Part shown: positions 1,150 to 50,800 of the stretch, piece after piece
How the letters are laid out: the number at the start of each line of letters is the position of its first letter
Numbering within the stretch: position 1 is the stretch's first letter
Sequence record: NC_047820.1
Strand: one strand, 5' to 3'
Length of the DNA stretch: 50,800 nt
Origin: Escherichia phage vB_EcoS_ESCO41
Program-made: the position numbers and the translations under genes
The notes under the pieces: generated by a model
What the model saw: the letters and a program-made list of their open reading frames with translations, nothing else
Told to the model about the DNA's origin: nothing
Database searches by the model: none

Positions 1150-1673
1150 TGTTTAATTTTGACGAAGACAAACTGACTGATGAGCAGATTATGAATATTG
1201 CTATCCAGGATGGGCTACCGCCACTGCGGGTTGCAATCAATGCTAACGGGTATCGGCATGTTCAGCACCTATGGGGTCAGCCTGATGCATCTGAAGTCTA
1301 CAGAGATGAAGCGCTGGGCGTTCTGATTAAGTTGATCAGGAAGATGGCAAGGAACGGCAAGGGAGTGGTGGGTGTCAAGTCTCTATACGAAGGCGCGCGC
1401 AAGGTTAAACCGTTCGTAGGATGCTTTGATATCATGTTGCGCATCAAGGGTGGGCTCCCCGCTCTAGAGGAAATGAATCTCACGTGCCTCATTGGAGATA
1501 AGATTTATGTCCACCCGGCTATCATTGATGAGTACTGGAAACCAAACTTCAAAACTTACGAAGGTGAGTATGCTAGTAGACTACCATACCACTTACGGTA
1601 CGGTGAGGATGAGGTGGAGGCGGCGATCGAGTTCTACCGGAAAGCTAAATCACTCCTGAATGGTGAATATTAA
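1149..1673 (+). CDS. hypothetical protein; internally deleted paralog of the 527-aa P-loop ATPase at 46380..47963 (N- and C-terminal segments only)
   Basis: MFNFDEDKL..LPPLRVAINANGYR and NGKGVVGVKSLYEGARKVKPF..TCLIGDKIY match both termini of the 527-aa protein; ATGA overlap with upstream gene. Confidence 0.6.
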   Translation: MFNFDEDKLTDEQIMNIAIQDGLPPLRVAINANGYRHVQHLWGQPDASEVYRDEALGVLIKLIRKMARNGKGVVGVKSLYEGARKVKPFVGCFDIMLRIKGGLPALEEMNLTCLIGDKIYVHPAIIDEYWKPNFKTYEGEYASRLPYHLRYGEDEVEAAIEFYRKAKSLLNGEY

Positions 1674-1888
1674 TGCTTATAAAATGCGTGTATGTAAGGC
1701 AAGCAAATCAACAAAACCTTTCAGTTGTAAATGGCGGGATATACGTAGCTAAGCCAATACCTTGTTTTAATGGCTCATACTACATCAAGGTTGATGGCAG
1801 TGAGTACATAGTAAAGACGATAGGTGAAGCCCTTATGATAAAGAGTCTGGGTATCATAATGGCTAAATTCGAAATTGTTCGCAAATAG
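1673..1888 (+). CDS. hypothetical protein (71 aa)
   Basis: TAATG overlap with upstream gene; stop TAG lies inside cassette palindrome. Confidence 0.45.
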   Translation: MLIKCVYVRQANQQNLSVVNGGIYVAKPIPCFNGSYYIKVDGSEYIVKTIGEALMIKSLGIIMAKFEIVRK

Positions 1889-1928
1889 CACGAATTGCTA
1901 AACCAGTACCGCAAGGACGCGGTATAGT
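1886..1928 (+). promoter_or_regulatory. palindrome-promoter cassette: TAGCACGAATTGCTA + 22 bp + TATAGT
   Basis: Palindrome 1886-1900 overlaps stop codon; -10-like 1923-1928; leader CATCGAAACGAAACGAG 1934-1950. Confidence 0.6.
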
Positions 1929-1966
1929 TACTCCATCGAAACGAAACGAGTAATTGAGGATTTGAA

Positions 1967-2185
1967 ATGAGCAAGACAATCACGCTTGAGTGCCTTAAGA
2001 CAAACAACCCTGAGTTCCTTAAAGGTCACAAATATGTAGCAACGCTCGTTGATGGTAAGACCTGGGCCGTTAAGGGTGGGTTTAGTGATTACAAGTTCCC
2101 ACTTGATCACATACCTGGTGGAAACCTTGGTTTTGTTAGTGACTGTCGCTCAGTTAAGTTCGTGTTTGAAGTGGTAATGAAATAG
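1967..2185 (+). CDS. hypothetical protein (72 aa)
   Basis: ORF after cassette and leader; stop TAG inside next palindrome. Confidence 0.5.
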   Translation: MSKTITLECLKTNNPEFLKGHKYVATLVDGKTWAVKGGFSDYKFPLDHIPGGNLGFVSDCRSVKFVFEVVMK

Positions 2186-2225
2186 CACTTTTTGCTAAAC
2201 CTTCCGCAAGGCCATTTGATATAGT
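2183..2225 (+). promoter_or_regulatory. palindrome-promoter cassette: TAGCACTTTTTGCTA + 22 bp + TATAGT
   Basis: Palindrome 2183-2197 overlaps stop; -10-like 2220-2225 preceded by TGA. Confidence 0.6.
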
Positions 2226-2267
2226 GGCCTTGTTGAAGCAAAACAACCAATCACAGAGGATTTACAA

Positions 2268-2630
2268 ATGAAAGTTCGTTTACTTAACCCGTCAATCTAT
2301 GCAGGCATTAGCTACACCAAGCTCCACGAAAAGGAGACGAACCCGCGAGATCCTGGTTCATATCCGATCGTCGTAGAGGGTTTCTTTGATGGCACTGAAT
2401 TTAATAATACTTCAATCAAGGTTGGTGGTGACGAGCTTGATCGAGTATTCAAAAGCTATTTCAGTAGCGGAAAGCCAATGAACTCATGTTACGGTAGCGA
2501 AGCAGTTCTTGGTTGGTGGAACGATCCAGGCGAGCCTAAATCATGGGAACCTGTCGGGCCGTTCGATTACTGGAATAAGCTCAAGGCATCACGCGAAATT
2601 GGCGAGACGGTAGGGAAGGGTTACTTATGA
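2268..2630 (+). CDS. hypothetical protein (120 aa)
   Basis: ORF with RBS-like AGAGGA upstream. Confidence 0.55.
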   Translation: MKVRLLNPSIYAGISYTKLHEKETNPRDPGSYPIVVEGFFDGTEFNNTSIKVGGDELDRVFKSYFSSGKPMNSCYGSEAVLGWWNDPGEPKSWEPVGPFDYWNKLKASREIGETVGKGYL

Positions 2631-2806
2631 TTACTTTATGCATTCTGCTTTACATCCTGGGCGCAATTCCGGTTTATGCAATTGCAAAAGACGTTAGCAA
2701 TAGCGATAACAAATGGTACGACATGGTGATCGTTGCCGCTATCTGGCCCATTGCCATTGCTTTCGGGGTGGTTAATGGCATCTACCAAAAGTTGAAGGAG
2801 AAATAA
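2627..2806 (+). CDS. small hydrophobic protein (59 aa, below ORF-track cutoff)
   Basis: ATGA overlap with upstream stop; translation MITLCILLYILGAIPVYAIAK.. is membrane-like. Confidence 0.4.
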   Translation: MITLCILLYILGAIPVYAIAKDVSNSDNKWYDMVIVAAIWPIAIAFGVVNGIYQKLKEK

Positions 2807-2808
2807 TC

Positions 2809-3027
2809 ATGCAAGTCTACACTAACAGTAAAGGCATTGAGTTTTGTGCGGTAGGCGATGTTGTCCTGCGCACTGGTAGCGATGTCGGGGTTGTTAAAAT
2901 CTCACGCATCACACAGGATCAGTTGGTAAAGGGCATCCAGGCTGGAATCTTTACCTATCACTCATCGTTGACGGCTGATGATTACATCACACTTGATTCT
3001 GCGGTTCGCGTTGGGTTCATCGAATAG
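2809..3027 (+). CDS. hypothetical protein (72 aa)
   Basis: RBS GAAGGAG before ATG; stop TAG inside palindrome. Confidence 0.5.
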   Translation: MQVYTNSKGIEFCAVGDVVLRTGSDVGVVKISRITQDQLVKGIQAGIFTYHSSLTADDYITLDSAVRVGFIE

Positions 3028-3067
3028 CACTTTTTGTTAAAACTTGCTCGGAGACATTAGCTATAGT
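3025..3067 (+). promoter_or_regulatory. palindrome-promoter cassette: TAGCACTTTTTGTTA + 22 bp + TATAGT
   Basis: Palindrome 3025-3039 (G-T variant half-site), -10-like 3062-3067. Confidence 0.55.
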
Positions 3068-3108
3068 GCCTCCTGTCAAGTGAACACAAACCAACTGAGG
3101 AATCACAT

Positions 3109-3915
3109 ATGAACAGCATTAACCGTTATATCCCTGTGTCAGTGCCAACCAGCGTCAACATTCACGGTGTCGGAATGCAGGCCTGCGACGATGGGGTGTG
3201 GGTATCCTACGCGATGCATAAGCAAGAAATTGAGTCCTTACAGACACGTTTAAAGGCCTTAGAATCGACTCAAAAACATCAAATTTCTGCACCGTCGATT
3301 ATCGCTGACCATGTTGAGCAGGCAATCAAAGAAGCTGTAGGTAAGCTGGTGCACGAAGCATGTGAGCAATTGCTCAAGGATTTGCCTAAGTACAATGGCG
3401 ATCCGTGTCACAGCACTGTCGATGCGTTCGTGAATGATCTTGCGGCTGGCCCAGGTAAGACCATCATGGATGACACCTACAGCGTCGCAGGTGAATTGAC
3501 GAAGAACGCCAAGTTCACTTTCGGTAGCAATTTCGGTGAAGGCAAGGCGCTTACCATGTCAACCGCGAAAATGGAACCACGAAGCGGCGGTTACGGTTAT
3601 AGCAATCGTCACGCATGGGCGGTGGGTGAATGTGAATCAGCACGCGATCGCAAGGTGGCGGTTTGCTACCATGTTGGAGGCAATGAGTTTATCAATGGTT
3701 GCGAGTACGCGTATGAAATTGATGAATGCGAACCAGGATGTGAGCCGCGACTTATTCAAATCACGCAAGATGCCTTCTGCTCTGGATTAAAAGGTGATTA
3801 CCGTTGGGAAGCCAGGAGAATTGGTAATGTTATGAATGCCAAGGCAACGCTCGTTGACGCATACGCAATCATAAATCCTGATGGTGGCGTAGTGGCTCAG
3901 TTCTATATCAAATAG
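3109..3915 (+). CDS. hypothetical protein (268 aa), Cys-rich C-terminal half
   Basis: Long ORF; no recognised catalytic motif. Confidence 0.55.
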   Translation: MNSINRYIPVSVPTSVNIHGVGMQACDDGVWVSYAMHKQEIESLQTRLKALESTQKHQISAPSIIADHVEQAIKEAVGKLVHEACEQLLKDLPKYNGDPCHSTVDAFVNDLAAGPGKTIMDDTYSVAGELTKNAKFTFGSNFGEGKALTMSTAKMEPRSGGYGYSNRHAWAVGECESARDRKVAVCYHVGGNEFINGCEYAYEIDECEPGCEPRLIQITQDAFCSGLKGDYRWEARRIGNVMNAKATLVDAYAIINPDGGVVAQFYIK

Positions 3916-3955
3916 CACTTTTTGTTAAAAGGGGATTCATCCTGAGTGGTATAAT
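3913..3955 (+). promoter_or_regulatory. palindrome-promoter cassette: TAGCACTTTTTGTTA + 22 bp + TGGTATAAT
   Basis: Palindrome 3913-3927 overlaps stop; -10 TATAAT 3950-3955 with TG at -15/-14, inside hairpin GGGGATT..AATCCCC. Confidence 0.6.
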
Positions 3956-3988
3956 CCCCACATCAATCACACGAAAGGAAGTTAACAA

Positions 3989-4606
3989 ATGAATCAGATG
4001 TACACCATGATCAAGCATCACCTGAACACCGACGCAATCAATAAGACAGTATACTTGTTTGATTACGACGGCACTCTGTCGGACGGAACCCATCGCCTTC
4101 ATAAGCTGCCAACAAAGGATTTGCACCTTACTGAGTCATGGTCTGAGTTCAATCGACTATCAGAATATGATCAGCCTATCGAGTCAACCATTCAGGTAAT
4201 GAACAGCCTTTACAACTCCGGCGCGTTCATCATCATTCTAACAGGACGTTCAGACGAGGTGTGTGAGATTTCTACTCAGTGGCTTCATGATGCTGGAGCA
4301 AAATATAACGTTATGGTCATGCGCCAGGCTGATGACAACCGCAAGGACACCATCATCAAGGAGGAGTTTTTACGGTACATTGGCTTGCATCGCATCACGG
4401 CGGCATTTGATGACAGCCCTAGCGTAGTTGCTCACTTCCGAAGCCTCGGCATCACTACCTATCAGGTGTGTGACTATGGCGATAACGCGCACTCCGGCCT
4501 TAAGTCTCACGGCGTAGAAAAGGTTTGCGAGCACGAATTTAGCGATCCTCTACCTCCGCATGGTGTTCGCCAGTGCAAGAAATGCAATCTCGTAAGCGGT
4601 AAATAA
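3989..4606 (+). CDS. HAD-superfamily phosphatase-like protein
   Basis: FDYDGTLSDG matches the HAD DxDGT catalytic motif. Confidence 0.5.
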   Translation: MNQMYTMIKHHLNTDAINKTVYLFDYDGTLSDGTHRLHKLPTKDLHLTESWSEFNRLSEYDQPIESTIQVMNSLYNSGAFIIILTGRSDEVCEISTQWLHDAGAKYNVMVMRQADDNRKDTIIKEEFLRYIGLHRITAAFDDSPSVVAHFRSLGITTYQVCDYGDNAHSGLKSHGVEKVCEHEFSDPLPPHGVRQCKKCNLVSGK

Positions 4607-4655
4607 AACTAAACTTAACGGTCGAACATCTCGACCACTACTCAGGAATGTCAAA

Positions 4656-5273
4656 ATGTCAAAGATTATCATTCTCAACGGTCCGGCTGGTGTAGGTAAA
4701 GACACGATCGGCAACGCGCTCGCAGCGGATTACAATTGCATCCCGACCAGCTTCAAGCGTCCGATGTTTGAGATTGCCGCGTCAATCCTTGGTGTCAGGG
4801 CTTTTTCAATGTTCATCACCGCATACGACGACCGCGACCAGAAAGAGCATCCTCAGAGCTTTCTCGGTGGAAAGACCTGCCGCGAGTTCATGATCTGGAT
4901 TAGCGAAACAGTGGTCAAGCCGCTTTTTGGCAATCAGCAGTTCGGCAAATTGATGAGCGAACATATCCGTCTGTGTGATGAAGGATTCTGTTTTGTTTGC
5001 ACTGATGGCGGCTTCCCCGATGAAGTGATTCGACTCGTTGAAGATGGTCACGATGTTACCCTGGTCCGCTTGTTCATGGATGGCAAGACTTTCGCGGGAG
5101 ATAGCCGTGATTATATCCGCATCAAGGAATCGCATTTCCCTGATTACAAGAAATATAACGAACATGATGTGCATCTGGTGAATGGTGATATTGACGGCGG
5201 CGTCATAGCAGTTGTTCGCGCCTGCGGTATCCGTCCTGCAATCGACGAGTGGGCCGACGATATTCCTTGGTAA
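4656..5273 (+). CDS. P-loop nucleotide kinase, T4 gp1 (dNMP kinase)-like
   Basis: Walker A IIILNGPAGVGKDT resembles the T4 dNMP kinase N-terminus (recalled from memory). Confidence 0.55.
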   Translation: MSKIIILNGPAGVGKDTIGNALAADYNCIPTSFKRPMFEIAASILGVRAFSMFITAYDDRDQKEHPQSFLGGKTCREFMIWISETVVKPLFGNQQFGKLMSEHIRLCDEGFCFVCTDGGFPDEVIRLVEDGHDVTLVRLFMDGKTFAGDSRDYIRIKESHFPDYKKYNEHDVHLVNGDIDGGVIAVVRACGIRPAIDEWADDIPW

Positions 5274-5274
5274 A

Positions 5275-5317
5275 TAGCACGAATTGCTAAACCCGCTCCG
5301 GCGGGTTTTGTTATAGT
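5275..5317 (+). promoter_or_regulatory. palindrome-promoter cassette: TAGCACGAATTGCTA + 22 bp + TATAGT
   Basis: Palindrome 5275-5289 just after stop TAA; -10-like 5312-5317 preceded by TGT. Confidence 0.6.
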
Positions 5318-5346
5318 TAGTTCACACCAAACGACAGGAAAGCAAA

Positions 5347-5505
5347 ATGATTACTATCAACCTGTCAGACAAGCAAGCCGTCATTCTTAAGCAACTCCTG
5401 GCAACTCAGACTATGCAGTGCACAGACGATGAGTTCTCGGAGATGGTTAAAGAGGTTCGCACTCAGATCAACAATCAACAATTCGACGAAAACGAAGGGG
5501 AATAA
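5347..5505 (+). CDS. small hypothetical protein (52 aa, below ORF-track cutoff)
   Basis: ATG 5347 preceded by leader CACACCAAACGACAGGAAAG; ends TAA 5503-5505. Confidence 0.35.
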   Translation: MITINLSDKQAVILKQLLATQTMQCTDDEFSEMVKEVRTQINNQQFDENEGE

Positions 5506-5507
5506 CC

Positions 5508-5906
5508 ATGAAATTACGTTGCATCAAGATTAACGCTAATTGGGAGTCGATGATCAAAGATTACTTTCAGGTCGGTAAAGTGTATGAGGCAAAGTACGGT
5601 CGCAACATCTACATTGGCACGGTAGATGTTATTGATGATCGCGAAGGGCTTACCTGGTGCGCTATACAGAAAGGGAGCAAGTTCAACCTGAATCTTCCCA
5701 CTGGCCCAGCCGTCACTTTCGAACTTGTAACAGGTCCGCGCCGCCTGGTGGTAACTGAGAAGCGCGTAACTAACGTGTTAAACGACAAGCGTAAATTCCG
5801 CCGCATGTGCAGACAGTACGGTAAGCTTCGATTTACTGAGCCTGGGATGTTCTGCTTTATCGCCTTCGCGGCAATGAAAAAGAATGCACGCAATCACCAG
5901 CGATAG
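5508..5906 (+). CDS. hypothetical protein (132 aa), basic C-terminus
   Basis: ORF with RBS; stop TAG inside palindrome. Confidence 0.5.
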   Translation: MKLRCIKINANWESMIKDYFQVGKVYEAKYGRNIYIGTVDVIDDREGLTWCAIQKGSKFNLNLPTGPAVTFELVTGPRRLVVTEKRVTNVLNDKRKFRRMCRQYGKLRFTEPGMFCFIAFAAMKKNARNHQR

Positions 5907-5946
5907 CACTTTTTGTTAAAACTCATAATCGGGGTGACTGTATAGT
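5904..5946 (+). promoter_or_regulatory. palindrome-promoter cassette: TAGCACTTTTTGTTA + 22 bp + TATAGT
   Basis: Palindrome 5904-5918; -10-like 5941-5946; leader CATCGAAACGAACGAGG 5952-5968. Confidence 0.6.
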
Positions 5947-5976
5947 TACCCCATCGAAACGAACGAGGAAGCAGAA

Positions 5977-6189
5977 ATGAAAATTGAAATTATCGACGTG
6001 AATTATGCTACTGATGACGACTCCCTCACCTTAGAGGAGTGCGGGTTTAAATTTGGGGATGTTGTCGAGGTGTTCGGTCATTACATTGATGGCGACCTTT
6101 CAATCAGGGCCATCCGTGAAACAGAGTTTGTCACCGTTGGCGATGGGATCAGCATTAGCGAACATGAATATAAGGTAATCGAAGAATGA
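5977..6189 (+). CDS. hypothetical acidic protein (70 aa)
   Basis: ORF after cassette/leader/RBS. Confidence 0.5.
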   Translation: MKIEIIDVNYATDDDSLTLEECGFKFGDVVEVFGHYIDGDLSIRAIRETEFVTVGDGISISEHEYKVIEE

Positions 6190-6512
6190 TTTACATTCAC
6201 ACTTATGGCATTGGCAAATTTGGCAAAGAGATTCGCCGGACCGTTCACGAAACGAAGGAATTAGCAGAAGCGGCACAGAAAGTTCTCGGCGGTGAGTTCA
6301 AGGCTTACCGCGAAGCGGATGACTCGGTTGAATGCTGGCAGGTTGAGCGCATGCGTAACGTTCTGGAAAGTGAGGTGTCAGATCTTATCGATAACATGAC
6401 GAGTCACGGCCCTGGCGGACCATGGGAAGAGCCTGGCTCACCGGAATGGGATTGTGCCAAGGTTGACACAATGAACAAGATCAGCGAAATCATTGATGGG
6501 GTGTACGAATAA
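6186..6512 (+). CDS. hypothetical protein (108 aa)
   Basis: ATGA overlap with upstream gene. Confidence 0.5.
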   Translation: MIYIHTYGIGKFGKEIRRTVHETKELAEAAQKVLGGEFKAYREADDSVECWQVERMRNVLESEVSDLIDNMTSHGPGGPWEEPGSPEWDCAKVDTMNKISEIIDGVYE

Positions 6513-6925: not shown

Positions 6926-7112
6926 GATCAAGAAGGGTGACGTGATCAAGTGTATCGGCGCGCGCGGTTATGAGTTCTTTAATGGCTGCGAGTACACAGT
7001 GGAAAAAGTTGATTCCCAGGGATACGTTTATGTCTACAGCGACGAGGGGAACAAGGTCGCGATCGACTACCCTGTTTGCCAGACGTATGGAACTTTTAAA
7101 AAAGTTGATTGA
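6897..7112 (+). CDS. hypothetical protein; likelier start ATG 6918
   Basis: ORF-track frame; the ATG at 6918 has a GGGGAAAG RBS-like sequence. Confidence 0.4.
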   Translation: MKMGKVSMSKIKKGDVIKCIGARGYEFFNGCEYTVEKVDSQGYVYVYSDEGNKVAIDYPVCQTYGTFKKVD

Positions 7113-7137
7113 CAACCATCTCACTGACTGGTATCTT
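7109..7137 (+). promoter_or_regulatory. candidate sigma70 promoter TTGACA-N17-TATCTT upstream of tRNA genes
   Basis: -35 7109-7114, -10 7132-7137; weak -10. Confidence 0.3.
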
Positions 7138-7288
7138 TAATCTCGTAAACAGAAGAGGCCACCAAGTGGCAACGAGCGGTTCGTAATCCGCAAATTGAAA
7201 TAGCGCATCGCCAAAAGCAAAGTGTAAGTCGCAATACAATCGAGGCATTGTGAAAGCCTGCCGGATTCCGTAACCGGCCTTCATTTAA

Positions 7289-7366
7289 GCTCCGCTAGCT
7301 CAATTGGAAAGAAGCAACGACCTTCTAAGTCGTAGGTTACTGGTTCGAACCCAGTGCGGAGCGCCA
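7289..7366 (+). tRNA. tRNA-Arg (anticodon UCU)
   Basis: Acceptor GCTCCGC/GCGGAGC, anticodon stem ACGAC/GTCGT with loop CTTCTAA, T-arm ACTGG-TTCGAAC-CCAGT, encoded CCA; D-arm irregular. Confidence 0.75.
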
Positions 7367-10186: not shown

Positions 10187-10735
10187 GTGAGATTCAGCGA
10201 TATTTTTACATACAAAAGCGGAGAGGTTTTCTGGAATGGAAGGCCAGAAAGTGATTTTAGTAAAATGAGTGCATATCACGCGTTTAATAGGATGGTTGGC
10301 AATACTGCTGGATACCTAGATAAATCAAACGGATACTGGTATGTGTGGATTACAATTGGCGGTATTGAAAAGAAAATACCACGATCACATATTGTGTGGT
10401 GTATTCACAATAATGCAGCCATCGTTCCAAAAGGGTTTGTTATTGATCATATAAACCACGTAAGAGATGATGATAGGATAGAAAACCTTGAACTTAAAAG
10501 CTATAGAGGAAACAACAGAAACCTTTCAATATCAAAAAGGAATAAAAGCGGTTGCGTAGGTGTTACATGGTATTCTCGCGATGAAATGTGGATGGCTTGC
10601 ATAATGGGTGATGACGGAAAGAACAAAAATCTTGGCAGGTATAATGACTGGTTTGATGCGGTTTGCGCAAGGAAGAGCGCGGAGCATGAGATTGGGTATC
10701 ACACAAACCACGGCAAGGATAGCGAGAATTGCTAA
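10187..10735 (+). CDS. HNH homing endonuclease (GTG start)
   Basis: IDHINHVRDDDRIENLEL matches the HNH/AP2-type motif; paralogous to 12823 and 40179 genes. Confidence 0.75.
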   Translation: MRFSDIFTYKSGEVFWNGRPESDFSKMSAYHAFNRMVGNTAGYLDKSNGYWYVWITIGGIEKKIPRSHIVWCIHNNAAIVPKGFVIDHINHVRDDDRIENLELKSYRGNNRNLSISKRNKSGCVGVTWYSRDEMWMACIMGDDGKNKNLGRYNDWFDAVCARKSAEHEIGYHTNHGKDSENC

Positions 10736-10748
10736 ACTCATGTATAAT

Positions 10749-10778
10749 GGCTAGGCTAACAACCTAGCCATTTTTATT
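10749..10778 (+). terminator. rho-independent terminator
   Basis: GGCTAGG-ctaacaa-CCTAGCC hairpin followed by ATTTTTATTT. Confidence 0.5.
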
Positions 10779-10790
10779 TGGAGAAAACAG

Positions 10791-29886: not shown

Positions 29887-30128
29887 TATTTCCACTCCTT
29901 ACTACCGTGATCTGCAACGGAGCCGCCGTAACCTCCGCCATTGGCCTTAATTCCATCGTAGCGCACGTCAACTTCTCCAGCCGGCACAACCACACCATTT
30001 TTCCATTTAGCCACGCACACTCCGTTTGATTGCGTTGCACACCAACCATCAGGGCGAGGACCAGAAGAACAACCTACCATCATGATTGCTGCTGCGGCGA
30101 TGATTGAAAGTTTGATTAAGTTAGTCAT
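29886..30128 (-). CDS. small lipoprotein, Cor-like superinfection-exclusion candidate
   Basis: Signal peptide plus lipobox MVGC in [22 protein letters not shown]; about 80 aa; adjacent to tail-fibre genes as cor is in FhuA-dependent phages. Confidence 0.45.
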
Positions 30129-30168
30129 TTCTAATTCCTCATTAAGTGCGTTTCGTTTCGATGGAGTA

Positions 30169-30211
30169 ATAGTATCGCATCCTTGCGATCAGTGTTTAGC
30201 AATTAGTGCTA
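30169..30211 (-). promoter_or_regulatory. palindrome-promoter cassette (minus): TAGCACTAATTGCTA + 22 bp + TACTAT
   Basis: Palindrome (plus 30197-30211) overlaps the Rha-like stop; leader CCATCGAAACGAAACG at plus 30149-30164. Confidence 0.6.
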
Positions 30212-30856
30212 TTTCTTTTCCAGCAGCAGCTTGATATCAATGCCGAGATTATTCTCAATCAGTCCGGTCAGCGCATCAGTCTTTTCCTTAAGGGCGAAGC
30301 ATTGAGCTTCATATTTAAATCTTTCCTCCATCTCATCAGAACGACCGACCCAACACTGGCGAGCCTCACAAGCCAACATGTCGAGCTTTTCATCGGTATT
30401 CTTATCCATCAGCAGGATCTCATTTATTCTTTGCTCCGCAACAATGCGCTGGCTCAGGTGTGCATTTTGCGCATTAGCTACACCAAGCATCATGCGCGCC
30501 TCTTTTAGTTCATCAATACTTACCATCTGGCTGATTACCTCAGCTTGCTTTTTAACTAACACCTCAAGCTCATGAAGCCTACGGATAACTTTGTGGCGAA
30601 GCAAGACGCTGTAGCCAGTGATTAGCGTTTCGGTGAGCTCCTTGTCTAGAAGAATCTCAGAATTATAACCTCGACCATCTTTAAGTATCTGATATTGCTT
30701 ATCATCCAAAACTGGATGATCGTTATATTGTAACAACTCATTGATCATATCCCTTGCATCCCTCATTACGTGGAAGTGCTCCTTTCCAGTTAATCCAGCG
30801 ATTTCCTTTGTGCTCATCATGGTTTTTGGTTGTTCTTTGTACGCTTTAATGTTCAT
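30209..30856 (-). CDS. Rha-family phage regulatory protein (antirepressor-like); start ATG 30856
   Basis: MMSTKEIAGLTGKEHFHVMRDARDMI resembles the Rha N-terminal domain; RBS GAGAGATTAAA before 30856; longer ORF-track N-terminus is probably 5' UTR. Confidence 0.5.
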   Translation of the reverse strand: MNIKAYKEQPKTMMSTKEIAGLTGKEHFHVMRDARDMINELLQYNDHPVLDDKQYQILKDGRGYNSEILLDKELTETLITGYSVLLRHKVIRRLHELEVLVKKQAEVISQMVSIDELKEARMMLGVANAQNAHLSQRIVAEQRINEILLMDKNTDEKLDMLACEARQCWVGRSDEMEERFKYEAQCFALKEKTDALTGLIENNLGIDIKLLLEKK

Positions 30857-31366: not shown

Positions 31367-31394
31367 TTGACTAATGCAACCAATAGCGTATAGT
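31367..31394 (+). promoter_or_regulatory. sigma70-type promoter TTGACT-N16-TATAGT for the recombination operon
   Basis: -35 31367-31372, -10 31389-31394, then leader CATCAACAACGAACGAGG and ATG 31428. Confidence 0.55.
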
Positions 31395-31427
31395 CAGCCA
31401 CATCAACAACGAACGAGGATTAAAGAG

Positions 31428-32468
31428 ATGACCAAACCACTGTTTCAATATTTCACTTCAGAAGAAATGAGCAACGACTTTTATCACAGTAAAGATGAAT
31501 GGACTGCCGAGTATGTCTCTGGTTCATCGTTAAGCAAGATTCACAGCACATGCCCTGCGGCGTGGAAGTTCGAAATGAACTCTACGACTAAGGCTCTTGT
31601 TTTCGGCACGCAGTCACACACAAACTTTGAGAGTAAGGCTCTTTTTGAACGTCAATATCGCCGCGCACCGAAAGAAAGCGAGATTGAAAACGTGATAACA
31701 AGCCAGGCGGCATTGGCAGCTAAGTTAAAATCATTTGGCCTGACTGGTACAAGCGGAAAGCAATATCCAGAGTTGATTAAAATGATGGTTGATTGCGGCG
31801 AAGACCTTAACGTCATGTGGCTGATTGACATGATCGCACAATGTCAGGCGTGGGCCGACGGAGTGGAACTGGTTAAGGCTGAGGACTACGACGCCTGCGT
31901 CAGTATGCGCCAGGTTCTTGAGATGATTCCTGAACATAACGCCTGCATGAACAGTGAGACTGCATTCCGTGAGTATTCATTGTTTGGCGTGATTTGTGGC
32001 GTTAAAGTTAAGGTGCGACTTGACCATGTTGACATCGTTAAGGATCTAGAGGCAATACGGCGCATGGGCTACGATCCTGAGATTCACCCTGAAATTGTCG
32101 TCATCACTGATTACAAAACGACAATGAGCGCTAACCCGACCGAGTTCCCTCGCCTGGCGTTCAATCATGGCTACTACCTCAAGATGGCATTGCAGCGTGA
32201 CTTGTTCGTTAAATGCTTTGAAGAAACGCGACCTGTGGTTGTGCGCTTGCTGGCCCAGGAGAAGAAAGAACCTTACTTGCCTATGGCGTACCGGATGAGC
32301 GGCGATCAGCTTAAGATTGGGCGTGCTCAGTATATGAGCGTTATTCATACTTTCTCAATGTGCGAAGCGAATGACGTATGGCCTTCATACAGCAACGGCG
32401 AGCCAGAGATTGAGCTTGAGACTCCTGATTGGATTAAAAAGCAGTTCAATCACATTTTGGAATCGTAG
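31428..32468 (+). CDS. PD-(D/E)xK-family recombination exonuclease-like protein; start ATG 31428
   Basis: Motif IVVITDYKTT with acidic residues upstream; directly upstream of Erf-like and SSB genes; ORF-track start 31374 lies inside the promoter. Confidence 0.5.
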   Translation: MTKPLFQYFTSEEMSNDFYHSKDEWTAEYVSGSSLSKIHSTCPAAWKFEMNSTTKALVFGTQSHTNFESKALFERQYRRAPKESEIENVITSQAALAAKLKSFGLTGTSGKQYPELIKMMVDCGEDLNVMWLIDMIAQCQAWADGVELVKAEDYDACVSMRQVLEMIPEHNACMNSETAFREYSLFGVICGVKVKVRLDHVDIVKDLEAIRRMGYDPEIHPEIVVITDYKTTMSANPTEFPRLAFNHGYYLKMALQRDLFVKCFEETRPVVVRLLAQEKKEPYLPMAYRMSGDQLKIGRAQYMSVIHTFSMCEANDVWPSYSNGEPEIELETPDWIKKQFNHILES

Positions 32469-32507
32469 CACTTTTTGCTAAACACGAATGCGGTGATTTG
32501 CTATAAT
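32466..32507 (+). promoter_or_regulatory. palindrome-promoter cassette: TAGCACTTTTTGCTA + 21 bp + TGCTATAAT
   Basis: Palindrome 32466-32480 overlaps stop; extended -10 32499-32507 within hairpin CGGTGA..TCACCG. Confidence 0.6.
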
Positions 32508-32544
32508 CACCGTAAATCAAACGAAGTAAACAAAGGTATATATA

Positions 32545-36123: not shown

Positions 36124-36148
36124 AATAATCAACTCCTATATTGTTGTT

Positions 36149-36163
36149 TAGCACGAATTGCTA
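36149..36163. promoter_or_regulatory. isolated TAGCACGAATTGCTA palindrome 26 bp upstream of the tail-fibre start, with no -10 at the usual distance
   Basis: Direct reading. Confidence 0.4.
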
Positions 36164-36189
36164 AAGCGCATTGTATCATAACAAAGGAA

Positions 36190-37159: not shown

Positions 37160-37174
37160 TTTGATTACTCCAAT

Positions 37175-37204
37175 AAAAAAGGTTGCACCAATTATGGCAC
37201 AACC
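37175..37204 (-). terminator. hairpin plus T-run (minus strand) that also carries the -10 of a degenerate cassette
   Basis: GGTTGCACC..GGCACAACC hairpin with plus-strand A6 (minus T6) tract. Confidence 0.45.
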
Positions 37205-37233
37205 TTAATTTTACTCTTTAGCTTTTCGTGCCA
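37191..37233 (-). promoter_or_regulatory. degenerate palindrome-promoter cassette (minus): TGGCACGAAAAGCTA + 22 bp + CATAAT
   Basis: Same spacing as canonical cassettes; -10 lies in the hairpin loop. Confidence 0.4.
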
Positions 37234-37234
37234 T

Positions 37235-37465: not shown

Positions 37466-37508
37466 ATCATACCTCATCAATGAGAAATGTCTTTAGCTTT
37501 TCGTGCCG
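37466..37508 (-). promoter_or_regulatory. degenerate palindrome-promoter cassette embedded in the 3' end of the HTH gene: CGGCACGAAAAGCTA + 22 bp + TATGAT
   Basis: Plus 37494-37508 palindrome-like, -10 at plus 37466-37471, then leader and gene 37235..37423. Confidence 0.45.
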
Positions 37509-37959
37509 CATCGTTAGCGGCCTTAATCTTGCGCCATGAACGACACTCTGGCTTAGTGGCTAGTTCAGCCTCGGTGACGACGCGCAGCATGTGACGCTTT
37601 TTGCAACGCAGCGTTAGCGGCTTACCGTTCCCGTCGAATTGCAGATCCGGTCGGCAGAACGTAGCGCGGAATCCCTCTCCAGTTCGTTTGTATCGGTTAT
37701 GAGCCAGCTGAGCGCCACGGGCCGACATCATGCCGCGCTTAAACCATTCCTCAACGGCCTGGCGACTAACTTTCAGTTGCTTTGCGATATTTGCCTTCGT
37801 TCCGTAGAAGTCGAGAACCATTTCCAGTCGCGCCCGAAGCCCCGCCTTTACTTCATCTTTTAAAACGTAGTAACCTGAAGGTCGTTTTCGTTGCTTTTTG
37901 TCTTCAGTGCGGACTGTTCCGTTGTTACCGTTAATAGTTCGCTTGTCAACTGCTTTCAT
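37477..37959 (-). CDS. basic DNA-binding protein with helix-turn-helix (candidate transcription regulator)
   Basis: HTH-like TKANIAKQLKVSRQAVEEWFKRG; Lys/Arg-rich; divergent from the helicase gene with a palindrome in between. Confidence 0.5.
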   Translation of the reverse strand: MKAVDKRTINGNNGTVRTEDKKQRKRPSGYYVLKDEVKAGLRARLEMVLDFYGTKANIAKQLKVSRQAVEEWFKRGMMSARGAQLAHNRYKRTGEGFRATFCRPDLQFDGNGKPLTLRCKKRHMLRVVTEAELATKPECRSWRKIKAANDAARKAKDISH

Positions 37960-37972
37960 TTTATCACCTCAA

Positions 37973-38015
37973 TAGCATTTTTTGTTAAAAGTCATTACGA
38001 TTTGATGGTAGTATT
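37973..38015 (+). promoter_or_regulatory. palindrome-promoter cassette: TAGCATTTTTTGTTA + 21-22 bp + TAGTAT
   Basis: Palindrome 37973-37987 sits 14 bp upstream of the divergent HTH gene start and upstream of the helicase gene. Confidence 0.5.
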
Positions 38016-38060
38016 GTACCAAATTAAACGCTACAAGACAATTTTTATAGGAATTTAGAT

Positions 38061-40655: not shown

Positions 40656-41071
40656 ATATTACAGATAAGGTTGATTACATTGAGTTTTACCCGGGCCCTG
40701 TTAAATCATGCCCAAAGGAGGATGACGAACAAATATTTTGCTCTGATTGGGTTAAGTATAACTATCCAGAGATGGTATTTTTCCACTGCGTGAATGAGGG
40801 TAAGAAAACCATTGGACAAGCAAGAAAGGACCAGGCTAAAGGATTGCTTAAGGGGGTTTCGGACTGCTTATTCCTGATGCCTGAATCGCTGCGTGGCAAA
40901 TACCCTTTCGGTGCCATAGAGCTAAAGAGAGCAGGAAAAACCCAAGCAAGCCCAGTCAGTGACGAACAGAAGTCATTCCTTAAAAGCGTAAGGGAATCAG
41001 GAGGTTTTGCTGGGGTTGCCTACGGGCGTGAAGGTTTTCTTGCGGCATTTAAAGAGATGATTTCAAAATAG
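40652..41071 (+). CDS. VRR-NUC-like nuclease domain protein (putative)
   Basis: PD-(D/E)xK-like pattern around ..FLMPE..GAIELKRAGK..; low-certainty motif reading. Confidence 0.4.
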   Translation: MNITDKVDYIEFYPGPVKSCPKEDDEQIFCSDWVKYNYPEMVFFHCVNEGKKTIGQARKDQAKGLLKGVSDCLFLMPESLRGKYPFGAIELKRAGKTQASPVSDEQKSFLKSVRESGGFAGVAYGREGFLAAFKEMISK

Positions 41072-41111
41072 CACGAATTGATAAAGACTAATCGGTGAGG
41101 TGGTGTATTAT
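41069..41111 (+). promoter_or_regulatory. palindrome-promoter cassette: TAGCACGAATTGATA + 22 bp + TATTAT
   Basis: Palindrome 41069-41083 overlaps stop; -10-like 41106-41111 in loop of GAGGTG..CACCTC hairpin; leader CATCGAAACGAAG. Confidence 0.55.
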
Positions 41112-41150
41112 CACCTCATCGAAACGAAGTAACCAACCAAGGAAATCAAA

Positions 41151-41423
41151 ATGAAAAAGTCAATCATCGCTCTACTGGCAGTTGTGGCAATGGCAGGTTG
41201 TGCAGAAGATACCAAGTTTTACGATTGCGGCAAGGAATCCTTCACAGTAACCAAGTCACAGATTGTTTCAGATAAGGGCGTTGTTATTGAGCGTGAAGGC
41301 GATCACTACGAACTGCAAACTTTCTTAGGGAAGGCAGTTTACAACGTGACTGAAAGTCAGGTCAAAGTTAGCGTCGGCGGGTTCGTCGCTGTGAATAACT
41401 GCAAAGTTACCGAGGTTAAATGA
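41151..41423 (+). CDS. small lipoprotein (90 aa)
   Basis: MKKSIIALLAVVAMAGCAED: signal peptide plus lipobox. Confidence 0.55.
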   Translation: MKKSIIALLAVVAMAGCAEDTKFYDCGKESFTVTKSQIVSDKGVVIEREGDHYELQTFLGKAVYNVTESQVKVSVGGFVAVNNCKVTEVK

Positions 41424-42153: not shown

Positions 42154-42385
42154 GATGGAAAAGTTGCAATTTGATTTAACTGAGCAGGGGCAATTCCTTT
42201 TATTTCGCGGCCTTGTTTGCACGGCTCTTACAATGGCTGGGTTCAAGGGTGATGCTTGGGTATTCTCAAATCTTGACATGTCATTTGAAGAGGTCCAAGG
42301 CACTCCATTTGAATCATGGTCAAGATCAATAGCAAAAGATCTCGCAGACTATAAGCGCGATTGCCCTGAAGATTTTAACCAATAG
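42146..42385 (+). CDS. hypothetical protein (79 aa)
   Basis: Overlaps methylase stop; own stop inside palindrome. Confidence 0.45.
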   Translation: MFKMEKLQFDLTEQGQFLLFRGLVCTALTMAGFKGDAWVFSNLDMSFEEVQGTPFESWSRSIAKDLADYKRDCPEDFNQ

Positions 42386-42425
42386 CACGAATTGCTAAAC
42401 ATACCCGCCGCCGTGCGGGTATACT
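42383..42425 (+). promoter_or_regulatory. palindrome-promoter cassette: TAGCACGAATTGCTA + 22 bp + TATACT
   Basis: Palindrome 42383-42397; -10-like 42420-42425; leader CACACCAAAGAAACGAGG. Confidence 0.55.
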
Positions 42426-42455
42426 TCTTTCACACCAAAGAAACGAGGAATCACC

Positions 42456-44381: not shown

Positions 44382-44382
44382 G

Positions 44383-44426
44383 TAGCACTTTTTGCATAAC
44401 ACTATAGCGCCGAAAGGCGCTATATT
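44383..44426 (+). promoter_or_regulatory. palindrome-promoter cassette (variant half-site): TAGCACTTTTTGCAT + 23 bp + TATATT
   Basis: Starts 2 nt after stop TAA; hairpin AGCGCC-gaaa-GGCGCT in spacer. Confidence 0.5.
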
Positions 44427-44453
44427 CATATCTCACCCACAGAGGATTCAATC

Positions 44454-47963: not shown

Positions 47964-47995
47964 CTTATTCTCTCTCGTTGTTATCGATGGGTATA

Positions 47996-48039
47996 AATAT
48001 ACCCGCCGAAGCGGGTATTGTCATTAACAAAAAGTGCTA
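47996..48039 (-). promoter_or_regulatory. palindrome-promoter cassette (minus): TAGCACTTTTTGTTA + 22-23 bp + TATATT
   Basis: Plus 48025-48039 palindrome overlaps upstream stop; hairpin ACCCGC-ttcg-GCGGGT; leader CATCGATAACAACGAGAG. Confidence 0.55.
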
Positions 48040-48246
48040 TTTTTTGAAGTGCCCTGGCGCATAGCATTTTCCATCCTTCTTATGCAAAACCCACCCAGCA
48101 GATTTAAGTTGCCTTGCACAATCAGAAAAGTTCTCGCCAGCAGCGTCCGTATAGTGTGGCATAAAATAATGCCCATCATCATTTGACTCAGTTGAGCACT
48201 TCTTGCAGTCGCAATAAACAGCGATGGAATAACCTGAAATAATCAT
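48037..48246 (-). CDS. hypothetical Cys-containing protein (69 aa)
   Basis: ATGA overlap with upstream gene. Confidence 0.45.
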   Translation of the reverse strand: MIISGYSIAVYCDCKKCSTESNDDGHYFMPHYTDAAGENFSDCARQLKSAGWVLHKKDGKCYAPGHFKK

Positions 48247-48596
48247 TTGTAAGCCGCCTCAAACTTATACATCCCATAACCAACATCATATCCAACCTCA
48301 TCATCGCGAGTGAGTTGCCAGCCGTCGCCGTCATTGTCGTAGATGTAGCCGGCATTACGACCTAATCCAGCGTGCATGGAGATCTGATAGCGCTTTCCTT
48401 CAGTGAATGATTTCTTAAGTGGATTGCTGTGGTCAACTTTTGTACATAGCAGGGTTTTGGTCTTAATGTAGCGCCCCTTGACGTCCAGGTTAACCCACTT
48501 GCCATCAACCTTGATTTGCTCTACATCATCTTTCACTCGAGCTTTAAAGAGTTTATTGTCTGAACTCACGAAGTTCTTTGTCAGTGTGGTAGCCAT
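48243..48596 (-). CDS. hypothetical protein (117 aa); start ATG 48596
   Basis: Leader CATCGAAACGAAACACACC and RBS AAGGAAA precede ATG 48596; ORF-track start 48668 falls in the cassette. Confidence 0.5.
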   Translation of the reverse strand: MATTLTKNFVSSDNKLFKARVKDDVEQIKVDGKWVNLDVKGRYIKTKTLLCTKVDHSNPLKKSFTEGKRYQISMHAGLGRNAGYIYDNDGDGWQLTRDDEVGYDVGYGMYKFEAAYK

Positions 48597-48634
48597 GATT
48601 ATTTTCCTTTGGTGTGTTTCGTTTCGATGAGATG

Positions 48635-48677
48635 AATATACAGGAAAAGCCCCGAAGGGCTTTAGCAATTAGTGCTA
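48635..48677 (-). promoter_or_regulatory. palindrome-promoter cassette (minus): TAGCACTAATTGCTA + 22 bp + TATATT
   Basis: Plus 48663-48677 palindrome overlaps stop of methyltransferase-like gene; hairpin AGCCC-ttcg-GGGCT. Confidence 0.6.
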
Positions 48678-49343
48678 TTTGTTACTTTCATATAGTGCGC
48701 GAGCAAACCCCTCAGGTGTTAATGATCGGAGTACTTTTGTCTTTGCAGACTTTCCGCCGCAGTATTTCCAGGCCCAGAAGAACCCAATGCTCTCGACTGG
48801 CTTTTTAATCGGTTCAACAAATCCATTCCCACACCAAATACATGTCTTTTTATTATAGGCGTTACGAGGGGGCATCCTGGGGTGATAAACTTCATCATGT
48901 TCAACGTAACCGCCATAATCGCAAGGGTGAAAATAGAAGTCAGGCTTACGCCACAGGCTTGAAAGCTTGCCTACCGGATTCTCGACCATCCAGGGTGCCT
49001 GGAAGTGATTTCCGACTTCCTCGACGAGCTTCGCATTAGCCAAGGCATACGCCAGTTCATCCTCACTGCGCTCATGCTGTGATCCAGACTGAGAGAACAG
49101 CGTGCAATCAGGGAATCCGATAACCATCTGCGCCGGAGGCAGGCCGAGTAATTCACACTTGGTGATGAAATCCTTGTCAATCCACATATTGACGTAGTGG
49201 ATGTTCTCATGCTTCATCTTGATATGGTATTCGCCATGATTACCAGAGTCCGCGTTGAAACAGTAGACGGTGTGACCATCTTCCGCCCATGGCAGGCCAG
49301 CGATGCCGGATCCGTCAAAAAGACAATAAATTACCTTTTTCAT
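48675..49343 (-). CDS. compact C5-cytosine methyltransferase-like protein (putative)
   Basis: Motif I-like LFDGSGIAG, motif IV-like GFPDCTLFSQSG (Pro-Cys), motif VI-like ENPVG; only 222 aa, no obvious target-recognition region. Confidence 0.4.
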   Translation of the reverse strand: MKKVIYCLFDGSGIAGLPWAEDGHTVYCFNADSGNHGEYHIKMKHENIHYVNMWIDKDFITKCELLGLPPAQMVIGFPDCTLFSQSGSQHERSEDELAYALANAKLVEEVGNHFQAPWMVENPVGKLSSLWRKPDFYFHPCDYGGYVEHDEVYHPRMPPRNAYNKKTCIWCGNGFVEPIKKPVESIGFFWAWKYCGGKSAKTKVLRSLTPEGFARALYESNK

Positions 49344-50189: not shown

Positions 50190-50227
50190 TTTTACTTCCT
50201 CTTTGTGTACTTCGTTTCGATGAAATT

Positions 50228-50270
50228 ATTATGCCTCAATCCGTGAGGCTTCGTTTAGCAATTCGTGCTA
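50228..50270 (-). promoter_or_regulatory. palindrome-promoter cassette (minus): TAGCACGAATTGCTA + 22 bp + CATAAT
   Basis: Plus 50256-50270 palindrome immediately after upstream stop TAA; leader TTCATCGAAACGAAG. Confidence 0.6.
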
Positions 50271-50271
50271 T

Positions 50272-50703: not shown

Positions 50704-50736
50704 TTATTTCTCCTTATCTCTCGTTTCTATGAGGTA

Positions 50737-50780
50737 ATAATAGCGAATCCACCATGACTGGTCATTAGCAAAAAGTGCTA
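50737..50780 (-). promoter_or_regulatory. palindrome-promoter cassette (minus): TAGCACTTTTTGCTA + 23 bp + TATTAT
   Basis: Plus 50766-50780 palindrome; leader CATAGAAACGAGAG. Confidence 0.5.
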
Positions 50781-50800
50781 TTCGTTGGATTTATGGATTG

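Follow-up and report, generated by a model that had tools for sequence, protein, structure and literature searches.

The genome of Escherichia phage vB_EcoS_ESCO41 (NC_047820.1), analysed here as one window of 50,800 nucleotides (nt) whose numbering is used throughout, is that of a T1-like siphovirus (Drexlerviridae), and its closest annotated relative is vB-EcoS-XT34 (Nouzillyvirus) with ~88% identity. On the + strand of its left part, an open reading frame (ORF) at 1673..1888 is followed by an ATG at 1967, and a compact series of elements lies between the two. The TAG stop codon of the ORF (1886-1888) is contained in an upstream element, ATAGCACGAATTGCTAAA, at 1885..1902; a spacer hairpin, ACCGCAAGGACGCGGT(AU), at 1906..1925 lies between this element and the -10, the start of which it overlaps, with a minimum free energy (MFE) of -10.6 kcal/mol; and the -10 hexamer TATAGT at 1923..1928 is located 20 nt past the upstream element and 5 nt before a box, CATCGAAACGAA, at 1934..1945, in which A1935 is the predicted +1 of a transcript with a 32-nt 5' untranslated region (5'UTR). 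The initial annotation had described this box as a C/A-rich leader recurring directly after -10-like hexamers. A search of the window with CAYCGAAACGAA, allowing at most one mismatch and using dinucleotide-preserving shuffles as control, returned six matches, all of them exact, at 1934, 5952 and 41117 on the + strand and at 30163, 48629 and 50222 on the - strand (motif start on its own strand), compared to 0.48 expected and a maximum of two in the shuffles, and the recurrence is therefore real. The positions first listed were correct at 1934, 5952 and 31401 and approximate but correct on the minus strand, and that at 41118 was off by one. Every copy lies 5-6 nt 3' of a -10-like hexamer, as had been noticed, and conservation around the copies, aligned in one orientation, reaches well beyond the 12-mer. 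No copy is found before the internal cistrons of the window.

The cassette preceding the box, mentioned in the initial annotation, proved real and larger than stated, as the upstream element ATAGCACnnnTTGnTAAA has 23 matches in the window at three or fewer mismatches compared to 0.6 expected, with the consensus aaATAGCAC(g/t)AATTG(c/a)TAAA, and about 18 of these matches belong to complete cassettes. The element is the published 21-nt "direct repeat" (DR), aaATAGCACnnnTTGnTAAAA, of phage TLS, where 18 intergenic copies are found in the same orientation as transcription, ~76 nt 5' of start codons, and it is also present in T1, Rtp and Rogue1 (PMC11447400). Just three sigma70-like promoters were found in TLS by the authors, and the role of the repeat was left as an open question in 2024, with a stoperator, an enhancer or an UP element as options (PMC11447400). 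The number of TLS copies is matched by the about 18 in the window, yet the TLS paper deals with the 21-mer alone and reports neither the spacer hairpin nor the -10 that follows at a constant 20 nt, nor the start-site box or the likeness to the promoter-early stem-loops (PeSLs) of T4-type phages (PMC11447400), and our literature search found no paper with the leader motif in a phage context. In 12 window cassettes, the preceding ORF ends in the TAG of the DR, namely at 1886-1888, 2183-2185, 3025-3027, 3913-3915, 5904-5906, 32466-32468, 41069-41071, 42383-42385 and 44383-44385 on the + strand and at 30211-30209, 48039-48037 and 48677-48675 on the - strand. In three further cassettes the upstream stop lies directly before the DR, and a second-frame TAA is present in its ..TAAA end. 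The DR thus doubles as a stop for translation built into the cassette boundary, a feature also described for PeSLs. It also contains the inverted repeat TAGCA-N5-TGCTA.

The other exact boxes are likewise located in full cassettes. On the + strand, the cassette at 5903..5976 comprises a DR (5903-5920), the -10 TATAGT (5941-5946) and the box (5952-5963) ahead of an ATG at 5977, and a hairpin, GGGGTGACT..AGTTACCCC, at 5931-5952 brackets the -10 (MFE -14.9, z -2.7), while that at 41068..41150 comprises a DR (41068-41085), the -10 TATTAT (41106-41111) and the box (41117-41128) ahead of an ATG at 41151, again with a hairpin bracketing the -10 (~41092-41122; MFE -20.2, z -5.3). On the - strand, the cassette at 30129..30212 has its DR at 30212..30195, a hairpin at 30189..30174, the -10 TACTAT at 30174..30169, the discriminator TACTC and the box at 30163..30152, with the ATG at 30128. 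The cassette at 48597..48678 (-) has its DR at 48678..48661, a terminator-like hairpin, GCCCTTCGGGGC+TTTT, at 48662..48647, the -10 TATATT at 48640..48635, the box at 48629..48618 and the ATG at 48596, and the one at 50190..50271 (-) its DR at 50271..50254, a hairpin at 50249..50233, the -10 CATAAT at 50233..50228, the box at 50222..50211 and the ATG at 50189. Three sites carry variants of the box. The copy at 31401, CATCAACAACGAACGAGG, follows a canonical sigma70 promoter without a DR (31367..31427, +), which consists of TTGACT (31367-31372), a 16-nt spacer and TATAGT (31389-31394); its variant box, CATCAACAACGA, at 31401-31412 leads into the Shine-Dalgarno (SD) sequence GAGGA and the ATG at 31428 of a recE-like ORF. 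The copy initially placed near 47975 exists as the three-mismatch variant CATCGATAACAA at 47989..47978 in a cassette at 47964..48040 (-) with a terminator-like hairpin, ACCCGCTTCGGCGGGT, 5' of an ORF for a 527-residue helicase with its ATG at 47963. Finally, the cassette at 50704..50781 (-) carries the variant CATAGAAACGAG at 50731..50720, with an ATG at 50703.

The anatomy of the cassettes was determined in 305 non-redundant, DR-anchored examples from the window, T1, Rtp, TLS and about 12 T1-like genomes in IMG/VR. In general, a cassette is ~80 nt long and consists of the DR, a 20-nt spacer that usually holds a GC hairpin, the -10, C(-1)A(+1), the box, an SD sequence and the ATG. Counted from the start of the DR, the -10 hexamer TATAaT occupies offsets 38-43 (-12..-7), with A in 76% of cassettes at -11 and T in 78% at -7, and it is accompanied by a G at offset 36 (-14) in 72%, a pyrimidine at offset 49 (-1) in 85% and an A at offset 50 (+1) in 71%. 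The A of CAT is the seventh base past the -10 and has a pyrimidine before it, which is the start-site geometry preferred by E. coli RNA polymerase. An extended -10 with the full TG is present in only about 40% of the cassettes, and the G at -14 in 12 of 18 window cassettes. In DR-type cassettes, no -35-like hexamer is found 16-18 base pairs (bp) from the -10, the TTGnTA of the DR being located 22 bp upstream, and in the window this spacing is seen only in the DR-less promoter at 31367-31394. A generic sigma70 scan of positions 1500-6500 detected none of the cassettes. With up to two mismatches allowed, the box starts at offset 49 in 65 cassettes, at offset 50 in nine and essentially nowhere else; it is independent of the repeat subtype and tends to go with better -10 hexamers. 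Exact and one-mismatch copies number 24 and 22, compared to 0.1 and 1.2 expected for independent columns. Among box-bearing cassettes, each position from -1 to +10 has an information content of ~1.5-2.0 bits, which declines to 1.1 at +11 and to less than 0.6 past that, and the discriminator directly 5' of the box stays variable. The box is hence a discrete linked block and not a graded bias, and recent duplication does not fit this pattern, as it would also keep the flanks alike.

The region from the DR to +1 folds more stably than its shuffles (mean MFE -8.4 versus -3.8 kcal/mol), and the hairpin displays two layouts. In one, it lies inside the spacer and is followed by the U-rich -10, several such sites being annotated as terminators in the T1 record, and in the other the discriminator forms the 3' arm of a stem around the -10. 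The six window cassettes with an exact box fold in line with these layouts, and that at 41117 is the sole window copy with a stem extending into CAUCG. Pairing of the 3' arm falls abruptly past -1. In 58 of 305 cassettes, the discriminator shows complementarity by exact 6-mers to the spacer of the same cassette, compared to 3.1 (maximum 10) with the spacers of other cassettes, whereas complementarity between box and spacer shows no excess (10 versus 9.2), and the hairpin therefore ends at -1. By the criteria for Rho-independent terminators, the hairpin at 5289-5308 is the only one in a cassette to pass a generic scan. The -10 supplies a U-rich tail in a subset, namely at 5289-5308, at 48662-48647 and at the T1 sites annotated as terminators, and the commonest class of hairpin ends at -1 and is followed by CAUCGAAAC without a U tract.

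Downstream, an SD sequence and an open ATG are found in 236 of 301 cassettes. Counted from the A of CAT, the predicted 5'UTR has a mode of 25 nt and is mostly 21-35 nt long, and the box makes up nearly all of the sequence between the predicted start and the SD. The GAGG in which the box had been said to end is found at 5952, where the box runs into CGAGG; elsewhere, 10-20 variable nt precede the SD. In leaders with the box, A makes up 49% and U 11% of the bases, and their folding is weaker than that of their own shuffles (MFE per nt -0.027 versus -0.059, p about 1e-11) and than that of the leaders of other cassettes. Pairing to 16S rRNA of the T7 epsilon type was considered and rejected, as 77% of shuffles reach the longest run of 7 nt and every one of the 200 shuffles pairs more strongly than the box, with its duplex energy of -5.9. 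A scan with Rfam 15 at gathering thresholds detected a tRNA alone in the window and no family in six box-bearing lambdoid loci.

The box is also found far outside the T1-like phages, as revealed by scanning viral contigs for TAnnnT-N5-CATCGAAACGA, i.e., the box in register with a -10. Escherichia phage Lw1 (176 kilobases (kb), RB43-like) carries at least nine cassettes in 41 kb, some of which hold the full T1-type repeat, the 20-nt spacing, a TACCC bracket hairpin and the box. One Lw1 cassette used in BLAST matched 259 phage records, most of them 175-180-kb T4-type phages of Klebsiella, Enterobacter, Cronobacter and Citrobacter, with T1-like phages found too. In cassettes of the Lw1 type, the repeat lies 7 nt further upstream and a separate -35 is located inside the hairpin loop, which argues that the repeat is an upstream module and not a -35. 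Certrevirus phages (KaOmega) have an identical 28-nt block of -10 plus box, and one KP15 cassette keeps the box without repeat or hairpin; since the box is likewise present at the DR-less 31401 promoter, it is not tied to either of these elements. The RB49 cassettes display a perfect TTGACA-17-TATAAT with a hairpin between the boxes or bracketing the -10, and the box follows the -10 as CATCGAAACGAG, CATCAAAACGAA or CATCGAAAACAACGAGAGG. Among registered matches without a DR, 41 of 55 have a -35-like hexamer at 16-18 bp, compared to about 11% by chance, a figure that is an estimate and was not computed, and nearly all of these matches are therefore taken to be real promoters. As separate observations, near-identical cassettes occur in Drexlerviridae siphoviruses and in RB43/KP15-like T4-type myoviruses (Lw1 loci L079, L080, L141 and L142), and three KP15 (NC_014036) cassettes, at 861-898, 1518-1566 and 1871-1899 of locus L227, are annotated as "putative middle promoter; discovered using MEME". 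These KP15 cassettes resemble sigma70 early-type PeSLs, with the -35 in the hairpin loop, a 17-bp spacer and TATATT, and the middle-promoter label is probably a misnomer, as a Mot box at the proper distance is absent.

A further group is formed by lambdoid phages, where about 35 contigs of 40-50 kb with heteroimmune operator and promoter variants contain the same box followed by a conserved non-coding leader. These loci correspond to the pL promoters of phi80, HK225 and HK639, annotated as pL in phi80 and HK639. As in the window, the box lies 5 nt past the annotated -10; the phi80 promoter reads TTGACC-17-TTTAAT TACTC CATCGAAACGAAAC and is, from the discriminator on, identical to window copies 1934 and 30163. 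Unlike the window cassettes, lambdoid pL has a canonical -35 with CI operators and neither DR nor hairpin, and the box is followed not by a ribosome-binding site (RBS) but by a conserved ~32-nt non-coding leader and then by nutL (phi80) or a put-like RNA (HK639). In phi80, nutL boxA lies 58 nt and gene N about 410 nt downstream, and in HK639 the annotated put-like antiterminator RNA is the next element, the stretch without an RBS being about 400 nt in phi80 and about 180 nt in HK639. The old phi80 record contains no mapped start. Taken across these groups, the distribution suggests that promoter modules have been exchanged horizontally between unrelated phages. Two side observations concern the same promoters. 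The first ~43 nt of the pL leader, AUCGAAACGAAACAUCGACAGCUGAGCGAAGUUAGCCAGCGGCG, are common to heteroimmune lambdoids with very different operators and promoters, at 403-445 of the phi80 locus (L231), at 384-426 of the HK639 locus (L230) and at about 35 IMG/VR loci, e.g., L150, L155, L168 and L226. In addition, a 31-nt stretch of phi80 pL is 93.5% identical to the T1-like phage GaoY1-9D.

The cassettes can be compared to the PeSLs, which are composite promoter-terminators starting at the upstream stop codon in an AT-rich stretch (PMC2839356, PMC4122927). In these studies, lacZ fusions gave ~13,000 Miller units of promoter activity for PeSL206/205 of phi1/RB49 and terminator activity about equal to rrnB T1 for the stem-loop of PeSL211/210 (PMC2839356), and recombination between PeSLs inserts, deletes and exchanges ORFans and forms mini-circles (PMC2839356, PMC4122927). 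T1-type cassettes are similarly intergenic, start at the upstream stop, combine a -10 with a GC stem-loop and end in an SD and ATG; in both, the stem-loop may lie between the two boxes, across the -10 or immediately ahead of the start site; and both occur in many copies per genome among small ORFs of unknown function. The PeSLs of RB49 share with them the position of the box, 5 nt past the -10, and RB49 early promoters are C-rich at -3..-1, with a consensus reported to agree with 5'-end mapping (PMC1524935). T1-type cassettes differ in lacking a TTGACA-like -35 at 17 bp and in having a conserved DR and a frequent G at -14, while the PeSL papers, in their accessible text, deal with T4-like phages alone and do not mention a conserved +1 box (PMC2839356, PMC4122927). 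As most PeSL features are shared but the -35 at 17 bp is absent, the T1-type cassette is classified as a PeSL variant and not as a plain member, that is, as a putative promoter-terminator. A partial likeness, of sequence only and implying neither homology nor shared architecture, is also seen with T7 (NC_001604), where A1 reads CC up to the start and ATCGAGAGGG from it, with ATCGA common to the box, and A3 reads AC up to the start and ATGAAACGACAG from it, with GAAACGA in common; both are strong early promoters for the host polymerase, in which a C-rich discriminator precedes a start at A.

Several other known promoter types were considered for the cassettes and rejected. The sigma54 consensus is TGGCAC-N5-TTGC, with GG and GC one helical turn apart, and the DR, read as TAGCAC-N3-TTGC, has a spacing 2 nt short and AG for GG in nearly all copies. 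The Mot box of T4 middle promoters, (a/t)(a/t)(a/t)TGCTTtA, is centred at -30, 11-13 bp upstream of the -10, whereas the TTGCTAAA of the DR lies 20 nt upstream of the -10. The annotated records of T1, Rtp and TLS list no MotA or AsiA gene, although no dedicated homology search was made, and RB49 and RB43 are themselves without motA (PMC1524935). An N4-type hairpin promoter was set aside in view of the lack of a phage RNA polymerase gene (PMC11447400). A Cro-like helix-turn-helix (HTH) protein of the T1 gp23/Rtp52 family is encoded at 37477..37959 (-), next to the primase gene, with a weak match to P22_Cro (E 1e-4, below the Pfam cut-off). As a general explanation, the DR as its operator was rejected, as the HTH protein is confined to T1-like phages and the DR is also found in Lw1 and KP15; within T1-like phages only, the protein is a candidate DR-binding regulator. 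The Rtp genome paper reportedly assigned 10 inverted repeats to Rtp52.

Based on the observed anatomy, register, statistics and cross-family distribution, we lean, with a modest preference, towards the box CATCGAAACGAA being a start-site and initial-transcribed module (-1 to +11) of early promoters used by host sigma70 RNA polymerase. Its placement in the start-site region of promoters read by host RNA polymerase is well supported, and the proposal that it forms the first nucleotides of the transcripts agrees, as a prediction, with the fixed distance from the -10, the pyrimidine at -1 and A at +1, the hairpin end at -1 and the RB49 layout. That these transcripts are early mRNAs, as the initial annotation had it, is plausible in view of where the genes lie. 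From homology and geometry we infer a start at the A of CAT, and a role of the exact 11-mer in promoter escape is likewise a matter of inference. In such a mechanism, the cassette would begin where the 21-nt repeat provides the stop codon for the gene before it, and the GC hairpin would end or insulate upstream transcription; the -10, often with G at -14 and without a -35 at 17 bp, would direct the start at the A of CAT, where the 11-mer may act at initiation by fixing the start site and favouring rapid promoter escape. The short (about 25 nt), A-rich and unstructured leader would then run straight into the SD, and its unstructured, non-sticky RNA could be of secondary benefit for ribosome loading. 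Action at initiation is favoured because the box is anchored to the -10, is indifferent to repeat, -35 and hairpin, is found at the RBS-free pL, is not found before internal cistrons and lacks 16S rRNA complementarity. The positions +1..+11 approximate the RNA length at which polymerase leaves the promoter, and studies of T5 and T7 promoters by Kammerer et al. in 1986 and Hsu et al. in 2006 reportedly found that the +1..+20 region controls promoter clearance. The box itself is purine-rich with a single U.

Some points weigh against this role at initiation. In most T1-type cassettes there is no -35 at 16-18 bp, a standard sigma70 scan overlooks them, and they may need a DR-bound factor. Two CpG steps in the box, C3-G4 and C8-G9, agree with the Y-G step in the consensus motif for pausing, and the sequence is therefore not an evident optimum for escape. 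The box is not essential either, since roughly three in four cassettes do without it, and a comparison of orthologues (n=12, too few diverged pairs) gave values of 0.83 for the leader, 0.70 for the spacer and 0.80 for the post-leader, i.e., weak extra conservation. Our literature search found no transcription start site mapping in Drexlerviridae or any T1-like phage. Finally, a sharp 5' edge at +1 is equally expected of an RNA 5'-terminal element.

Such an element is the main rival explanation, in which the box acts as RNA, its 5'-terminal AUCGAAACGAA being bound by a host or phage factor or passively setting 5'-end-dependent stability or ribosome loading. While we consider this rather unlikely, it is quite conceivable, as conservation begins at the predicted first transcribed base and stops sharply at +11, the box abuts the SD in the very short T1- and T4-type leaders and is kept outside the upstream hairpin, the leaders are A-rich and unusually unstructured, and an exact 11-mer suggests specific recognition over compositional bias. 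Yet the box is anchored to the -10 and not to the ATG, whose distance varies from 21 to 35 nt; it heads the pL transcripts of phi80 and HK639, far from any RBS; it has no 16S rRNA complementarity beyond that of shuffles and no Rfam match; and it is absent before internal cistrons. The same position at pL, anchoring and lack of 16S rRNA pairing disfavour the translational enhancer suggested in the initial annotation. To our knowledge, no factor is common to T1-like, T4-type, Vequintavirinae and lambdoid phages, which also counts against an RNA role. The processing site suggested in the initial annotation is supported by no feature, and it is very improbable that hairpin and single-stranded box together form one in read-through transcripts, giving a protected upstream 3' end and a uniform downstream 5' end. 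The hairpin end exactly at -1 and the single-stranded box would suit such a site, but the box occurs without a hairpin at the third KP15 promoter, at 31401 in the window and at lambdoid pL, and the -10 and pyrimidine-A geometry already account for the primary 5' end. Moreover, the stems are too short for RNase III, and the U-poor box is unlike the preference of RNase E.

At the level of DNA, the box could be mainly a homology patch or linker for PeSL-style cassette recombination, kept by concerted evolution and not by a role in expression. PeSLs mediate insertion, deletion and exchange of ORFans and form mini-circles (PMC2839356, PMC4122927), the cassettes flank small ORFs at both genome ends, near-identical cassettes are found in unrelated phage families, and the homology of heteroimmune lambdoids begins at the box. 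In addition, when the window is compared to its relatives, more homology breakpoints fall in cassettes than expected (23 of 254 versus 8.6, 2.7-fold, p about 2e-5), but this could reflect faster intergenic divergence. We nevertheless regard the explanation as improbable, as 12 nt offer very little length for homologous recombination, gene conversion would even out the discriminator and the spacer, which are both variable, and edges at -1 and +11 in all four phage groups are unexpected for a junction. Very doubtful, too, is a role as DNA operator at +1..+11 for a repressor of early promoters, or as the target of some other DNA-binding protein: the box is a discrete element of 12 bp, contains CGAAA CGAAA as an internal direct repeat and overlaps the start site, where repressors classically bind, and T1-like phages encode the Cro-like HTH protein, but this protein is confined to them whereas the box is also found in T4-type, Certrevirus and lambdoid phages, phi80 pL has its annotated CI operators elsewhere, and the box is not palindromic.

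Returning to a function of the box in initial transcription, it could be speculated, tentatively and as an unlikely case overall, that AUCGAAACGAA is a 5' tag directed at the host and shared horizontally, which would be recognised either by RNA polymerase while it transcribes the first nucleotides or by an RNA-binding factor of the host and would give phage transcripts privileged expression. It would have been acquired independently by, or exchanged among, at least four unrelated groups of Enterobacteriaceae phages (T1-like, T4-type, Vequintavirinae and phi80/HK639-type lambdoids), and in T1-like phages would be coupled to a promoter that lacks a -35 and depends on the 21-nt repeat. If true, such a tag would give fast escape, resistance to decay or host shut-off, or antitermination competence.

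The remaining cassettes of the window carry other initial transcribed sequences or no box. On the + strand, the cassette at 2182..2267 has a DR, a -10-bracketing hairpin and TATAGT with a different initial transcribed sequence, TGTTGAAGCAAA, and that at 3024..3108 has DR, hairpin and TATAGT without a box. The cassette at 3912..3988, 5' of a polynucleotide-kinase-like ORF, combines a DR and a GGGGAT..ATCCCC hairpin around TATAAT with a related start, CATCAATCACAC. At 5274..5346, the DR is followed by the terminator hairpin (5289-5308), TGT-TATAGT and the start CACACCAAACGA. A GTAGCAC variant DR is found at 32465..32544, 5' of an Erf-like ORF, with a hairpin around TATAAT and the start AAATCAAACGAA, and the cassette at 42382..42455 holds a DR, a terminator-like hairpin, TATACT and the start CACACCAAAGAAACGAGG. 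Box-less forms are a degenerate cassette with a strong hairpin at 44382..44453 (+), GTAGCACTTTTTGCATAA, and two variant cassettes, ATGGCACGAAAAGCTAAA at 37160..37234 (-), 5' of a primase ORF, and ATAGCATTTTTTGTTAAA at 37972..38060 (+), between the divergent HTH gene and a helicase ORF. Two further sites contain the repeat in other settings. A copy of the repeat core, TTTAGCACGAATTGCTAAA, at 36147-36166 lies between the genes for tail fibre and primase and matches the repeat on both strands at three or fewer mismatches (one on +, three on -); it lacks a -10 and a box in register, and a terminator-like hairpin, CCCGCCGTAGCGGG, comes after it. At 10719-10790, 5' of the portal gene, a degenerate repeat, ATAGCGAGAATTGCTAAA, is followed just 6 nt later by TATAAT and then by a terminator-like hairpin, GGCTAGG..CCTAGCC+TTTTT, a layout unlike the standard cassette. 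In the left early region, a tRNA-Arg (anticodon TCT) is located at 7289-7366, and its promoter, TTGACA-17-TATCTT at 7110-7138, ~150 nt upstream, is without the start box.

The cassettes place the 21-nt repeats of T1-like phages in context, as the upstream end of putative promoter-terminator cassettes that also contain a hairpin, a -10 at a fixed position and a defined start, and extend mobile regulatory cassettes of the PeSL type past the T4-like phages. With its terminator, promoter and 25-nt leader, the cassette is also a ready-made compact expression module for engineering. The sharp-edged 11-nt box, which unrelated phages have in common, may help to determine promoter escape or the fate of the transcript, and near-identical modules in siphoviruses, myoviruses and temperate lambdoids bear on how regulatory DNA moves between phages. 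For the Drexlerviridae, the arrangement accounts for the near-absence of promoters in the output of standard finders and offers a usable model for their annotation.

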